DNA of 64,000 bases from Escherichia coli. Its GTDB lineage: Bacteria; Pseudomonadota; Gammaproteobacteria; Enterobacterales; Enterobacteriaceae. The stretch lies in assembly GCF_030013595.1 (NCBI RefSeq), contig NZ_CP122768.1; one strand, written 5' to 3'. Shown piece after piece: positions 4,425 through 16,970 of this stretch; position 1 is the stretch's first letter; each line of letters opens with the position of its first letter. The notes beneath the pieces are model-generated. The model was not told the DNA's origin, did no database searches, and worked only from the letters and a program-made list of their open reading frames with translations. A program made the translations under genes and the position numbers.

Positions 4425-5698
4425 TTAACTTCCCCTTGTGTCAACGCAATATCGCGATCATCGACCTTGATAGCCGTAATTTCGTTGTCGGATTCGCGGA
4501 AAAAAATCATGAACAGCACGGCGATAATGGCAATCATCACCGCGCCAAAAGTCCACATCCCGGACCAGTTGAAAGTCAGTCCGTTTACCGGTTCCTGATA
4601 AGCGAACATCTTTTCCATCATCACACCGCCAAGACGATAGCCGAGCAAACTGCCGAAGCCCTGGCAGCAGAGCGTGATCAGCCCCTGCGCGGCGGTACGC
4701 ATATGCACGGGGGCTTTTTTATCGACATAGATGTAAGCGGTAACGTAGTAAAAATCGTAACTTACGCCGTGAAGCAAAATACCGAGGAACAGTAACGCGT
4801 AGGTGAAATATTCATCCGCACTACCGTAAATAAAGAAGCCATAGCGGATCGCAGCGGTGACCAGACCAAGCAATAATACCTTTTTGATACCAAAGCGTTT
4901 AGTGAAAAACGGTAATGCCAGCATAAAGAATATTTCAGAGAACTGGCCGAGCGTCATCCAGCCGGTGGCATTTTTCATGCCGACTTCGGTCAGATAACCG
5001 TTGGCAAAGATGTAATAGAACGCCAGTGGCATCGCAAACAGGAATGAACAGAAGAAAAAGACGAGGAAGTTTTTATCGCGCAGCAGGATCAGCGCATCCA
5101 GGCCGAGCATGACTTTAATATCCATTTTGCCGGTGCTTTTTGGTGGCGTGTCGGGCAGGAAAAACGCAAACACACCGAGCAGAGCAGAACTTCCGGCGGT
5201 AATCAGCAGCGGGATGTTAGTCGGTGAGATATCGGCATACCCCAGTATTTGCGGCAAGAAACCACATGCCAGACCGGAGGCAATCCAGCCGATAGTGCCC
5301 ATCACACGAATGCGCGGGAAATCACGCTCCACATCCGGCACGTTGGCAAAAGCGATGCTGTTAGTCAGCGCAATGGTCGGCATATAGGTTAGAGAGTAAG
5401 CCAGCAGTAACGGAAAGAACCCGGCAAAAGTGGTCTGTTGCGCAGCGAAATACATCAGCAGCGCGCCTGCGAACATCAATACCGCCAGCACTTTTTGCGC
5501 CGAGAAAAAGCGGTCAGTGATGGAGCCAACCAGAATTGGCGACAGGATCGCCGCAATGGCGGTACAGGCATACGACCAGCCAATTTCTCCGGCACTAAAA
5601 CCGCTTTTACTTAACCACAACCACAATGGCACAAACCACGCGCCCCAGATAAACCATTCAACAAACATCATGAACGACAGCTTTGCTGTTGTTTTCAT
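4421..5698 (-). CDS. yegT: nucleoside:H+ symporter family MFS transporter
   Basis: 425-aa ORF, highly hydrophobic with multiple predicted TM segments; first gene of the yegTUV operon. Confidence 0.85.
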   Translation of the reverse strand: MKTTAKLSFMMFVEWFIWGAWFVPLWLWLSKSGFSAGEIGWSYACTAIAAILSPILVGSITDRFFSAQKVLAVLMFAGALLMYFAAQQTTFAGFFPLLLAYSLTYMPTIALTNSIAFANVPDVERDFPRIRVMGTIGWIASGLACGFLPQILGYADISPTNIPLLITAGSSALLGVFAFFLPDTPPKSTGKMDIKVMLGLDALILLRDKNFLVFFFCSFLFAMPLAFYYIFANGYLTEVGMKNATGWMTLGQFSEIFFMLALPFFTKRFGIKKVLLLGLVTAAIRYGFFIYGSADEYFTYALLFLGILLHGVSYDFYYVTAYIYVDKKAPVHMRTAAQGLITLCCQGFGSLLGYRLGGVMMEKMFAYQEPVNGLTFNWSGMWTFGAVMIAIIAVLFMIFFRESDNEITAIKVDDRDIALTQGEVK

Positions 5699-11654: not shown

Positions 11655-12695
11655 ATGAAATCAATGGTGAATGATACTGATGGTATAGTGCGCGTTGCAG
11701 AAAGCGTCATTCCTGAAATTAAACATCAGGATGAGGTGCGGGTAAAAATTGCCAGCTCGGGCTTATGTGGTTCCGATTTACCCAGGATATTTAAAAATGG
11801 TGCACATTATTATCCAATAACGTTAGGCCATGAATTTAGCGGCTATATTGATGCGGTGGGATCCGGTGTTGATGATTTACACCCTGGCGATGCGGTTGCC
11901 TGTGTGCCGTTATTACCCTGTTTTACTTGTCCAGAGTGTTTGAAAGGGTTTTATTCCCAGTGTGCAAAATATGATTTTATTGGCTCGCGGCGTGATGGTG
12001 GATTTGCTGAATATATTGTCGTTAAGCGAAAAAATGTCTTTGCTCTACCCACGGATATGCCTATTGAGGATGGGGCTTTTATTGAGCCGATTACCGTTGG
12101 CCTGCATGCTTTTCATTTAGCGCAAGGTTGTGAGAATAAAAACGTTATTATTATTGGTGCCGGAACCATTGGCCTGCTGGCTATTCAGTGCGCTGTCGCG
12201 CTGGGAGCAAAGAGTGTGACGGCGATCGACATTAGCTCAGAAAAACTGGCACTGGCAAAATCTTTCGGTGCGATGCAAACATTTAACAGTAGCGAAATGA
12301 GCGCGCCGCAAATGCAGAGCGTTTTACGCGAACTGCGCTTTAATCAGCTTATCCTCGAGACGGCTGGCGTACCGCAAACTGTCGAACTGGCGGTAGAGAT
12401 TGCCGGTCCTCATGCCCAACTGGCGCTGGTGGGCACGTTGCATCAGGATCTGCATTTAACATCGGCAACGTTTGGCAAAATATTGCGTAAAGAGCTGACG
12501 GTTATCGGCAGTTGGATGAACTACTCCAGCCCTTGGCCGGGGCAGGAGTGGGAAACGGCGAGCCGGTTGCTGACAGAACGTAAGTTAAGCCTGGAGCCAT
12601 TAATCGCTCACCGTGGAAGCTTTGAAAGCTTCGCCCAGGCGGTGCGTGACATCGCTCGTAATGCCATGCCGGGCAAAGTGTTGCTCATTCCCTGA
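11655..12695 (+). CDS. gatD: galactitol-1-phosphate 5-dehydrogenase (zinc-dependent MDR family)
   Basis: 346-aa ORF with Zn-ADH motifs (GHEFSGY..., GAGTIGL Rossmann motif). Confidence 0.9.
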   Translation: MKSMVNDTDGIVRVAESVIPEIKHQDEVRVKIASSGLCGSDLPRIFKNGAHYYPITLGHEFSGYIDAVGSGVDDLHPGDAVACVPLLPCFTCPECLKGFYSQCAKYDFIGSRRDGGFAEYIVVKRKNVFALPTDMPIEDGAFIEPITVGLHAFHLAQGCENKNVIIIGAGTIGLLAIQCAVALGAKSVTAIDISSEKLALAKSFGAMQTFNSSEMSAPQMQSVLRELRFNQLILETAGVPQTVELAVEIAGPHAQLALVGTLHQDLHLTSATFGKILRKELTVIGSWMNYSSPWPGQEWETASRLLTERKLSLEPLIAHRGSFESFAQAVRDIARNAMPGKVLLIP

Positions 12696-12731: not shown

Positions 12732-12800
12732 CAAAACAGATCATTCACCAATGGTCCCCCTTCGTTTACACTAGCCACAATTGAATATGGGTAAATGACG

Positions 12801-13574
12801 ATGAATTCATTCGAGCGAAGGAATAAGATCATCCAATTAGTGAATGAACAGGGAACCATGCTTGTTCAGGATCTGGCGGGAGTATTTGCTGCCTCGGAAG
12901 CGACAATCCGTGCCGATTTGCGCTTTCTCGAACAAAAAGGCGTGGTTACGCGCTTTCATGGCGGTGCGGCGAAAATAATGTCCGGTAATAGTGAAACCGA
13001 GACCCAGGAAGTCGGGTTTAAAGAGCGATTTCAGCTCGCCAGCGCGCCGAAAAACAGAATAGCGCAGGCGGCAGTCAAAATGATCCATGAAGGGATGACC
13101 GTTATTCTCGACAGCGGAAGTACCACAATGCTTATCGCCGAAGGATTAATGACCGCCAAAAATATCACGGTGATTACCAACAGTCTCCCGGCTGCGTTTG
13201 CCCTTTCCGAAAATAAAGACATTACTCTGGTCGTCTGCGGTGGCACGGTCCGCCATAAAACGCGATCTATGCATGGATCTATTGCTGAACGTTCCCTGCA
13301 GGATATTAATGCCGATTTAATGTTTGTCGGTGCTGATGGTATTGATGCGGTTAATGGTATTACGACCTTTAATGAGGGTTATTCCGTTAGCGGTGCGATG
13401 GTCACAGCCGCTAATAAAGTGATTGCCGTTCTCGATTCATCGAAATTTAACCGTCGCGGTTTTAATCAGGTACTGCCAATCGAAAAAATTGACATTATTA
13501 TTACCGATGATGCTGTGTCTGAGGTGGATAAACTGGCATTGCAGAAGACACGGGTGAAATTAATTACGGTGTAG
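12801..13574 (+). CDS. gatR: DeoR-family repressor of the galactitol operon (intact)
   Basis: ORF from 12795; MNSFERRNKIIQLVNEQGTMLVQDLA... is a DeoR-type HTH N-terminus; uninterrupted reading frame of about 257 aa. Confidence 0.85.
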   Translation: MNSFERRNKIIQLVNEQGTMLVQDLAGVFAASEATIRADLRFLEQKGVVTRFHGGAAKIMSGNSETETQEVGFKERFQLASAPKNRIAQAAVKMIHEGMTVILDSGSTTMLIAEGLMTAKNITVITNSLPAAFALSENKDITLVVCGGTVRHKTRSMHGSIAERSLQDINADLMFVGADGIDAVNGITTFNEGYSVSGAMVTAANKVIAVLDSSKFNRRGFNQVLPIEKIDIIITDDAVSEVDKLALQKTRVKLITV

Positions 13575-13579
13575 TATTG

Positions 13580-13640
13580 TTCTGTATGCCGGATAAGGTA
13601 TTTACACCGCATCCGGCATTACGGATTCTCCCTGGTTCAA
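13580..13640. repeat. REP element
   Basis: GCCGGATAAGG...CGCATCCGGC palindromic unit in the convergent gatR/yegS gap. Confidence 0.6.
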
Positions 13641-13655
13641 GAGAGAATAGTTTGA

Positions 13656-14555
13656 TTAACGCAATAATGGACAATCTGGTGGTAATCGACAACGCAACGC
13701 CGCCGGAAGTATTTCAATATGAAAGTTTTGTCCACTCAACGGTTCGCCATCAAGATTAAAAGTGATTTCGTGTGGGGCTTGTATATCAAACCACGACGAA
13801 GCGCCTTCGATAATATTCGGGTTATCTTCGTCAGATTTTAAGGTTGATACGAGAGCCGGAAGAATTTCATCGCCGGTAAAAATGCGCAGTTGCAGCAAGC
13901 CATCGTTAATTAACGCGTTCGGGCACAATTGTTGACCGCCACCGGCCTGACGCCCGTTACCAATACCAATGACCAGGGCGTCACCTTGCCAGTGAAAGTT
14001 TTCACCGCGGATTTCACAACGGTCCGGTTGCAGAGTATCCATACGCATTAAGCCATGAATGATGTATGAGACGCCACCCAGCGCGGCTTTTAATTTTTCC
14101 GGCGTTTCTGTGGTAATACGCGTCCCAAACCCGCCTGTCGCCATATTAATAAAACAGGTTTGTTTGTTGACCTGCGCCATATCTATCGCAATGGCATTAC
14201 CGGCAATTGCCAGTTTCAGCGCCTTATCCAGTGCCTCAGGAATCCCTACACTGGTGGCAAAATCATTGGCGGTTCCTAATGGCAAAATTCCCAGCGCGGG
14301 TATGTCATCCCCCTCACACTGAATCAACGCCGTAGAAACTTCATTAATGGTGCCATCGCCACCACCGGCAATCACCGTTGCGACGCCCAACTTCCGGGCC
14401 TCCTCTACAAATCGTGCGGCATCACCTTTCTCCCAGGTGACCCGCACATGGATCGTCATTCCTTCCTCACGCAACAGCATAATTGCTTCGCGCAAGGGTA
14501 GATTGTCAGTACTTTTGCCATTAAGAATCAGTAAGCTGGCGGGAAATTCTGCCAT
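13656..14555 (-). CDS. yegS: lipid kinase (DAGK_cat family)
   Basis: 299-aa ORF with a diacylglycerol-kinase-like catalytic region (GGDGT); recognised as YegS. Confidence 0.88.
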
Positions 14556-14960
14556 GATCGTATGTGCCTTTATGATTGGTCTGTAGATAGTGTAGAGCAG
14601 AAAAGAAAAGGTGGAGTCAGAACAGGATGAAAGTCGGAGGATAAAAAGTCAGTTCAAGTATGGAGGATTCAGTGGTTACCACCAGGAGCTTGCAATGGGA
14701 ACAGCGAATATTAACGGTAACCACCGATAAATTTCAAAAAAGAGCATATGCCTAATATTCAACTAAACAGTGGCATCTTCAATATAATATATTAAAGCCC
14801 CCATGGAGTTACCCTGAAGGGCCTCAATGTCCGTAATTCCTACTTATGTAGGAAATGTTGTACAGAACATTTATTATAATCCTATTCAATTATAATGATC
14901 ATGCCATTATTATATTTAAACACTAGAGAGTGTCGTTGGTATTTAATGGGGGAAGGTGAG

Positions 14961-15278
14961 ATGAAAAAGATAGCTGCTATATCATTAACTAGTATTTTTC
15001 TTATATCTGGTTGTGCTGTGCATAATGATGAGACAAGTATCGGTAAATTTGGTCTTGCATATAAAAGTAATATTCAGCGTAAACTCGATAACCAATACTA
15101 CACCGAAGCCGAAGCTTCTTTAGCCAGGGGTAGAATATCTGGTGCAGAAAATATAGTAAAAAATGATGCAACTCATTTCTGTGTTACTCAGGGCAAAAAA
15201 ATGCAAATAGTTGAGCTGAAGACAGAAGGTGTAGGATTACATGGTGTCGCTCGTCTGACATTCAAATGTGGAGAGTGA
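14961..15278 (+). CDS. yegR: small putative lipoprotein
   Basis: ATG at 14961 preceded by GGAAGGTGAG; product MKKIAAISLTSIFLISGC... carries a lipobox (LISGC); the ORF-track start at 14895 has no SD. Confidence 0.8.
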   Translation: MKKIAAISLTSIFLISGCAVHNDETSIGKFGLAYKSNIQRKLDNQYYTEAEASLARGRISGAENIVKNDATHFCVTQGKKMQIVELKTEGVGLHGVARLTFKCGE

Positions 15279-15427
15279 GAATATTTTTTGGTAAGCGTCA
15301 AATATGCGCGTTCTGGCTGTGCGTAGCCGGAACCTGTGGGAGCACGATGCCGATAAGTGAAAGGCATCGTGCTATGAAGGAGGATTCTATCGATGTGGTC
15401 AATGGAAGACGGTTACCAGAGATAGGG

Positions 15428-15514
15428 CTTATGCATAAAAAAATAAGCCCGTGTAAGGGAGATTACACAGGCTAAGGAGGTGGTTCCTGGTACAGCTAGC
15501 ATTTTATGGGTTAT
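15428..15514 (-). ncRNA. cyaR: Hfq-dependent small RNA CyaR (RyeE)
   Basis: Minus-strand sequence GCTGAAAAACATAACCCATAAAATGCTAGCTGTACCAGGAACCACCTCCTTAGCCTGTGTAATCTCCCTTACACGGGCTTATTTTTT matches CyaR as I recall it, including the terminator hairpin and U tract. Confidence 0.8.
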
Positions 15515-15608
15515 GTTTTTCAGCGAAACGGATGATAACCTTAATAAATGCAGCTGTATGTGATCGGTTTCTAAGAATTTTCCATCCGGGAAAAATAATC
15601 GAAATTAA

Positions 15609-16970
15609 TCACTTACCGTGGGGATTACGCGTGGTTTCCCCGGAGAAATTACGCATCAGCAGCGCGTAATTGAGCTCAAGATCCTGCGGGACCGGGAGCC
15701 ACACAGTATAACCATCGCCTGGTGCTATCGGCATAGCTTCGCCTTTGGCGTTTTCCATGTGCTCAAGGGTAAAATTAATGTTGCCTTGCGGCGTCATCAG
15801 CTCAAGGCTGTCGCCAACGGAGAATTTATTTTTCACCGCTACCGCCGCGAGGTCCCCCTTGCGCTCACCGGTAAACTCACCAACAAACTGCTGGCGGTCA
15901 GAAACTGAATAACCGTATTCGTAGTTCTGATAATCGTCGTGAGTATGACGACGCAGGAAACCTTCGGTATAGCCACGATGCGCCAGACCTTCCAGAGTTT
16001 CCAGCAGGCTGGTATCGAACGGTTTTCCCGCAGCGGCGTCATCGATAGCTTTGCGGTAAACCTGTGCGGTGCGTGCACAATAGTAGAAAGATTTGGTACG
16101 ACCTTCGATTTTCAGCGAATGCACGCCCATTTTGGTCAGGCGTTCTACATGGGCGATGGCGCGCAGATCTTTCGAGTTCATGATGTAAGTGCCGTGCTCA
16201 TCTTCAAACGCGGTCATATACTCGCCCGGACGCTGGGCCTCTTCGATCATAAACACTTTGTCGGTTGGTGCGCCGATACCCAGCGTCGGCTCAACATTTT
16301 GCACCGGAATCGGCTCGTACTTGTGTACGATGTTGCCAACATCATCTTCTTTCCCTTCCTGGACGTTGTACTCCCAGCGGCAGGCGTTGGTGCAGGTGCC
16401 CTGGTTCGGGTCGCGCTTGTTGATATAGCCAGAGAGCAGGCAGCGACCGGAGTAGGCCATGCACAGCGCGCCGTGAACGAAGATCTCGATCTCCATATCC
16501 GGCACCTGATTGCGGATCTCTTCAATCTCTTCCAGCGACAGCTCGCGAGAGAGGATCACGCGGGTCAGGCCCATTTGCTGCCAGAATTTCACCGTCGCCC
16601 AGTTCACGGCGTTAGCCTGCACCGAAAGGTGGATCGGCATTTCAGGGAAGTGCTCACGCACCAGCATAATCAGCCCTGGATCGGACATAATCAGCGCATC
16701 CGGCCCCATTTCCACCACCGGTTTCAGGTCACGGATAAAGGTTTTCAGCTTGGCGTTGTGCGGTGCAATGTTGACCACGACATAAAACTTTTTCCCCAGC
16801 GCGTGGGCTTCATTGATGCCGAGCTGAAGATTTTCGTGGTTGAATTCGTTGTTGCGCACACGCAGGGAATAACGCGGCTGGCCCGCATAAACAGCATCTG
16901 CGCCATAAGCGAAAGCGTAACGCATATTTTTCAGCGTTCCCGCCGGGGAAAGGAGTTCCGGTTTAAACAT
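15609..16970 (-). CDS. yegQ: U32-family peptidase-like protein (tRNA hydroxylation factor TrhP)
   Basis: 453-aa ORF recognised as YegQ (peptidase U32 family). Confidence 0.88.
   Translation of the reverse strand: MFKPELLSPAGTLKNMRYAFAYGADAVYAGQPRYSLRVRNNEFNHENLQLGINEAHALGKKFYVVVNIAPHNAKLKTFIRDLKPVVEMGPDALIMSDPGLIMLVREHFPEMPIHLSVQANAVNWATVKFWQQMGLTRVILSRELSLEEIEEIRNQVPDMEIEIFVHGALCMAYSGRCLLSGYINKRDPNQGTCTNACRWEYNVQEGKEDDVGNIVHKYEPIPVQNVEPTLGIGAPTDKVFMIEEAQRPGEYMTAFEDEHGTYIMNSKDLRAIAHVERLTKMGVHSLKIEGRTKSFYYCARTAQVYRKAIDDAAAGKPFDTSLLETLEGLAHRGYTEGFLRRHTHDDYQNYEYGYSVSDRQQFVGEFTGERKGDLAAVAVKNKFSVGDSLELMTPQGNINFTLEHMENAKGEAMPIAPGDGYTVWLPVPQDLELNYALLMRNFSGETTRNPHGK

Follow-up and report, generated by a model that had tools for sequence, protein, structure and literature searches.

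The divergent Escherichia coli genes yegS and yegR are separated by a gap that contains a short palindrome upstream of yegR, which raises the question of whether this palindrome is a regulatory site and, if so, which protein recognizes it. We addressed the question in a 64-kb stretch of E. coli DNA (here called the window), in which the ORF map places the following genes around the gap:

11655-12695, plus strand: gatD
12795-13574, plus strand: gatR, intact
13656-14555, minus strand: yegS
14961-15278, plus strand: yegR (ATG at 14961, stop at 15278)
15609-16970, minus strand: trhP/yegQ

The identities of yegS and yegR agree with the RefSeq annotation of near-identical loci. The gap between them (14556-14960) measures 405 bp and is AT-rich, with 37.5% GC compared to 52% in the window; the stretch from the palindrome to the yegR ATG has 30.6%. 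The palindrome itself, TTCCTACTTATGTAGGAA, lies at 14837-14854 and consists of perfect 7-nt arms around a 4-nt spacer (TTCCTAC-TTAT-GTAGGAA). Its right end is 107 nt from the ATG of yegR, and its center is 115.5 nt away. The initial annotation had described an AT-rich gap of about 400 bp holding a perfect 7-bp dyad with a short spacer about 105 nt upstream of yegR, and the measurements bear this description out.

When the 405-bp gap was shuffled 1,000 times with dinucleotide composition preserved, 26% of the shuffles contained one or more perfect 7-bp dyads with a spacer of 0 to 10 nt, and the window contains 83 such dyads (1.3 per kb). The 7-bp symmetry by itself is within chance expectation. 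The weight of the dyad comes instead from its motif match, its conservation, and the literature, with symmetry contributing none.

The EvgS/EvgA two-component system senses acid, and its response regulator, EvgA, is of the NarL/FixJ type; the published EvgA motif is an 18-bp inverted repeat of TTCPyTACA. We used this motif as a lead and then tested it directly by searching the K-12 regions that contain the other reported direct EvgA targets with TTCYTACNNNNGTARGAA. Across 26 kb of K-12 DNA, every match with two or fewer mismatches fell within the emrK/evgA, frc, yfdX, safA, or ydeP promoter regions, and the pattern common to these promoters is TTCYTACA-NN-TGTARGAA (18 bp). The boxes, with coordinates on K-12 sequences L009 and L010, are as follows:

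L009 3514-3531, plus-strand match: emrK/evgA promoter box, TTCTTACGCCTGTAGGAT
L009 13507-13524, plus-strand match: frc promoter box, TTCTTACAACTGTAAGAA
L009 14539-14556, plus-strand match: yfdX promoter box, GTCTTACAATTGTAGGAA
L009 14501-14518: second, weaker box of yfdX
L010 4072-4089, plus-strand match: safA promoter box, TTCTTACAGCTGTAGGCA
L010 6731-6748, plus-strand match: ydeP promoter box, TTCTTACAGGTGTAGGCT

Like the boxes of emrK/evgA, frc (yfdW), yfdX, safA-ydeO, and ydeP, the yegR dyad forms an 18-bp inverted repeat. It is better read as two half-sites of 8 nt separated by 2 nt (TTCCTACt-TA-TGTAGGAA), although the left half is imperfect at position 8, which is T in yegR and A in all five other sites. 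Counting both half-sites, 15 of the 16 specified positions agree with the consensus from the EvgA targets. The initial annotation had suggested comparing the palindrome with known regulator sites, and the comparison shows that it matches the inverted repeat of every other reported direct EvgA target promoter. The yegR site nevertheless has features of its own. Both of its half-sites are of the CCTAC/GTAGG variant, whereas the other EvgA boxes carry TGTAAGAA on the gene-facing side, and TA fills its two central positions, at least one of which is G or C in each of the other sites. There is one box at yegR, compared to two boxes 38 bp apart at yfdX, and two consensus TATAAT hexamers lie near the yegR box that are absent from the other EvgA promoters.

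For a quantitative comparison, we built a symmetrized weight matrix from the five K-12 sites, leaving yegR out. With the two central positions ignored, the yegR dyad scored 20.7 bits and ranked first in the 64-kb window, far ahead of the runner-up (11.17) and close to the training sites themselves (21.9 to 27.0 bits). Only 1 of 25.6 million simulated positions reached this score, corresponding to one hit in 400 simulated 64-kb sequences. When the two central positions were included, the dyad still ranked first, with 13.97 bits against 8.37 for the runner-up. No other sequence in the gap scored above about 5 on the EvgA matrix.

Previous studies had already connected yegR with EvgA. A review lists yegR among the promoters that EvgA strongly binds, without giving binding coordinates (PMC8147483), and in a transcriptome study yegR was induced 11.9-fold along with ydeO, yfdX, ypdI, and emrK, a group that the authors attribute to evgA control (PMC5811628). 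Because the literature reports both binding and coinduction, yegR belongs among the EvgA-responsive genes, which corrects the statement in the initial annotation that no regulator of yegR was known. Taken with the motif match, these reports make it very probable that EvgA recognizes the dyad at 14837-14854 as its box in the yegR promoter. Regulation of yegR by EvgA is thus already on record, and the finding of the dyad is correct but ordinary. What is gained here is the placement of the likely operator at 14837-14854 in the present strain, at a site nearly fixed within the species; since yegR had already been assigned to the EvgA acid resistance regulon, the relevance beyond annotation is slight.

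We investigated the conservation of the site in 5,426 complete E. coli genomes. The gap was found in 5,423 of them at 90 to 99% identity, and the wider region around the box was present in 5,395 to 5,417. With a 32-nt query that includes the box, 5,036 genomes gave a match of at least 99% identity, so that conservation of the palindrome within E. coli, which the initial annotation had left to be checked, was found. The evgA gene, which lies with evgS outside the window, is present in 5,398 of the genomes. We also compared first 8 and then 14 copies of the gap, picked to span the divergence of the species. In both sets, GTAATTCCTACTTATGTAGGAAATGTTGTACA was invariant apart from single-strain changes. 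One base of the box was changed in 1 of the 14 copies (strain GmM077, T to C at box position 2), and the base at 14860, just past the box, is T in one O157 strain. The 13 bp directly upstream of the box, on the other hand, are hypervariable, with at least 7 positions varying among the 14 diverged copies. Variation in the gap is highest across 14660-14833, where a 9-bp indel lies after 14785, about 50 bp upstream of the box. On the downstream side, within-species conservation continues across the whole core promoter, and the box is therefore not singled out from that direction.

The other end of the gap is conserved as well. Next to the yegS start codon, the first 100 bp of the gap (14556-14655) are almost invariant among copies that differ by up to 9% over the remainder, and constraint on a leader or promoter of yegS could account for this. 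We found nothing that points to control of the divergent yegS gene by the dyad, which lies about 290 bp from the yegS ATG. Of the proposal in the initial annotation that the palindrome is a dimeric regulator site in a divergent control region, the regulator site upstream of yegR is supported by the motif match and by near-invariance beside a variable flank, and the notion of an element shared with yegS is not.

To place the box relative to the core promoter, we aligned the promoters on the box, each in the direction of its gene. The elements discussed below are the following:

14764-14793, plus strand: sigma-70-like upstream promoter TAAACA-18-TATATT from the promoter scan, spanning the 9-bp indel that is polymorphic among strains
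14837-14854, unstranded: very probable EvgA box, an 18-bp inverted repeat (TTCCTACT-TA-TGTAGGAA), assigned from the sequence, the K-12 promoter pattern, the matrix, conservation, and the literature
14853-14872, unstranded: second perfect dyad, AAATGTT-GTACAG-AACATTT, between the box and the candidate -10 hexamers
14873-14880 and 14889-14896: two copies of the self-palindromic octamer ATTATAAT, within 14873-14896
14875-14880, plus strand: TATAAT, alternative -10 hexamer at +21 to +26 after the box, within the first ATTATAAT octamer
14880-14885, plus strand: TCCTAT, candidate -10 hexamer of the EvgA-dependent promoter at +26 to +31 after the box, identical to that of safA
14891-14896, plus strand: second TATAAT, further alternative -10 hexamer in the second ATTATAAT copy

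Downstream of the box, the 6 nt best conserved among the five known EvgA promoters are those at +26 to +31. The hexamers at +26 are TCCTAT at safA, TCTTAT at ydeP, TCTGAT at frc and the proximal yfdX box, and TCCTCT at emrK; a TCYKAT-like block 26 to 31 nt downstream of the box is therefore common to yegR and the other EvgA promoters. The second base of all of these hexamers is C, which is unfavorable in a -10 element, so the geometry identifies a common block whose role as the -10 is only a candidate one. Depending on the choice of -10, the center of the yegR box would lie near -41.5 (TATAAT at 14875-14880), -46.5 (TCCTAT), or -57.5 (second TATAAT), and nothing in the geometry of the other EvgA promoters supports the last of these. 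The yegR promoter has no good -35 hexamer. The block at +26 to +31, present in all six EvgA promoters, could help define their architecture and predict new members of the regulon. A second pattern, C-A-n-A-A at +9 to +13 after the box (14863-14867 at yegR), is also common to the six box-anchored promoters and may be part of the EvgA-dependent promoter architecture. Farther upstream, TAAACA-18-TATATT is given as a "constitutive" promoter for yegRZ in a genomic SELEX table, in which H-NS is also marked in the yegR-yegS spacer (PMC3946193).

The arrangement suggests a likely activation mechanism. Activation of EvgS would lead to phosphorylation of EvgA, and a phosphorylated EvgA dimer would occupy 14837-14854, with one helix-turn-helix per TTCCTAC(A) half-site. 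The promoter-side edge of the box is 20 to 25 bp upstream of the candidate -10 hexamers at 14875-14880 and 14880-14885, which would put the dimer on or directly beside the -35 position. Class II activators usually bind in this arrangement, and EvgA may likewise recruit or stabilize RNA polymerase by contacting it at the yegR promoter, which lacks a good -35 element. EvgA probably also counteracts H-NS on the AT-rich DNA and could plausibly relieve silencing in this way. The lipoprotein gene yegR would in this way be turned on in parallel with ydeP, safA-ydeO, yfdX, frc, and emrKY. We infer the start site, the class II contact, and the H-NS relief from the arrangement of elements, and these details are less secure than the assignment of the box to EvgA.

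The closest characterized homologue of EvgA, BvgA of Bordetella, offers a parallel, although in another organism and another regulon. BvgA is a NarL/FixJ-type dimer that binds inverted TTTCCTA-like heptads upstream of and overlapping the -35 region and activates sigma-70 promoters, and the half-site core TTCCTA is the same in its heptads and in the yegR dyad. BvgA promoters usually carry, besides a high-affinity site, several secondary sites of low affinity that extend toward the core promoter, whereas no such array was found at yegR.

The sequence between the box and yegR contains further symmetry. The second dyad (14853-14872) and both ATTATAAT octamers follow the box without a gap and are conserved across diverged E. 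coli: in the 14 diverged copies, the arms of the second dyad are invariant except for the T at 14860 in the single strain, and its spacer is G or A at 14865. Perfect dyads are more frequent in the gap than expected, with 4 counted, the box included, against 0.39 expected (P = 0.006). The yegR promoter may conceivably integrate regulators beyond EvgA, with the second dyad serving as the operator of another protein that gates EvgA activation, for instance a repressor binding between -35 and -10. We consider this extension unlikely. The second dyad has no counterpart in the other EvgA promoters. By eye, the second dyad is like the outer arms of a CRP site with a spacing 2 bp too short, and the ATTATAAT region weakly resembles a Fur box; we claim neither CRP nor Fur.

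The same downstream dyads bear on whether a dimeric regulator other than EvgA, such as RcsB, NarL, GadE, UhpA, or a repressor of another kind, replaces EvgA at the box or competes with it. Conserved dyads at 14853-14872 and 14873-14896 mean that more than one protein may bind here. Related short inverted repeats are recognized by other NarL/FixJ-family proteins, and the left half-site does deviate from the EvgA sites at position 8. The half-sites are nonetheless those of EvgA targets at all but one of the specified positions. The NarL 7-2-7 site, TACYYMT-NN-AKRRGTA, resembles the yegR site in that a dimer of the same family binds two inverted heptamers spaced 2 bp apart, but it differs in heptamer sequence and polarity, with TAC at the outer ends. 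The yegR dyad (TTCCTAC..GTAGGAA) has TAC/GTA at the inner ends, and it was rejected as a NarL site on this ground. The RcsAB box has the opposite order of half-sites. Within the literature that we searched, H-NS is the only regulator besides EvgA that is tied to the gap (PMC3946193). Binding of another dimeric regulator in place of EvgA, or in competition with it, is accordingly improbable.

Nac was a further candidate, as a Nac ChIP-seq peak has been assigned to yegR at 2,165,875 on U00096.2. On U00096.3, yegR occupies 2,167,989-2,168,306 and yegS starts at 2,168,712. With the offset of about 1,976 bp between the two versions, the peak falls downstream of yegR, beside yegZ; without the offset, it falls inside trhP. 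Either way it maps outside the yegS-yegR gap, and Nac binding at the gap was rejected. Expression of yegR did fall upon Nac induction, a decrease that may be indirect because evgA also fell (0.288-fold).

Could the palindrome be a chance occurrence without function, with EvgA acting on yegR through another sequence in the gap or indirectly? The frequency of such dyads among the gap shuffles and in the window would allow it, and the review that reports EvgA binding names no coordinates within the promoter (PMC8147483). However, the dyad is the best site in 64 kb on a matrix trained on other EvgA targets and is almost never equaled in simulation, and the rest of the gap scores too low to supply a replacement. 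Its downstream geometry is like that of the other EvgA promoters, and it stays near-invariant beside a hypervariable flank. Chance is therefore a highly improbable explanation.

Least credible is a role at the RNA level, in which a long yegR leader would start from TAAACA-18-TATATT, a promoter both predicted here and listed in PMC3946193, and the dyad would form a hairpin in this leader that affects stability, termination, or translation. A 28-nt segment does fold as a 7-bp hairpin (-9 kcal/mol; z = -4.3), and a 161-nt leader folds the three dyads as three successive hairpins, but such a fold is expected of any perfect dyad, the z score of the whole leader is only -1.8, and 13 of 200 shuffles fold as well. 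An intrinsic terminator or structured RNA was rejected on that z score and on the gap scans, which returned no T-run after the stem, no terminator-like site, and no Rfam match. As the stem is invariant across copies, covariation gives no information on pairing. The primary sequence, by contrast, recurs at five unlinked promoters, including the A and T positions that would close the loop, and this is the pattern of protein recognition.

With the dyad very probably an EvgA box, we investigated how far the site extends beyond E. coli. An exact scan of 100,044 species genomes with the 18-mer gave seven matches; it returned no record named E. coli and is therefore uninformative on other Escherichia species. 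Six of the matches come from unrelated phyla, and chance alone would give roughly that many. The seventh is a metagenome-assembled genome labeled "Citrobacter sp." (L012; DXKH01000116.1), in which gatR, yegS, and yegR form an E. coli-type locus and the box is intact. This contig is probably misbinned E. coli DNA. A P4-type integrase-like ORF adjoins yegR on it.

Homologues of YegR outside E. coli were also compared. Upstream of five of them, with 47 to 83% identity, there was no EvgA-like box (best score, 7.25, compared to 20.7 at yegR). These homologues (L024, L025, L027, L028, and L029) sit in unrelated neighborhoods: that of Enterobacter sp. BIDMC 29 is flanked by IS elements, and others neighbor a glutaminase gene or an Ivy gene (two metagenome contigs) or a MerR gene (another). 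With homologues that lack the box and lie in unrelated contexts, deep conservation of the site could not be demonstrated. The absence of the box from these homologues suggests that the EvgA wiring arose at the E. coli yegS-yegR locus and was not inherited with the gene family.

The family itself is narrow. YegR is a 105-aa lipoprotein with a signal peptide and the lipobox LISGC, and RefSeq names it "lipoprotein YegR." The precomputed annotation of all homologues carries PF27694 ("YegR"); our local Pfam copy gave no family for YegR (14961-15275) and evidently predates this entry.

The surroundings of the gap differ in part from those in K-12. The gap at 15279-15608 holds the minus-strand gene of the small RNA CyaR (RyeE; 15441-15526), which Rfam matches with 100.7 bits. 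The cryptic P2 remnant PR-X (ogrK and yegZ), which lies between yegR and cyaR in K-12, is absent from the present strain. In the gatR-yegS gap, 13587-13622 gives a subthreshold Rfam match to naRNA4 (30.1 bits, compared to a gathering score of 59.5) and is probably a REP-type repeat. The adjacent gatR gene is interrupted by IS3E in K-12 and is intact in the present strain.
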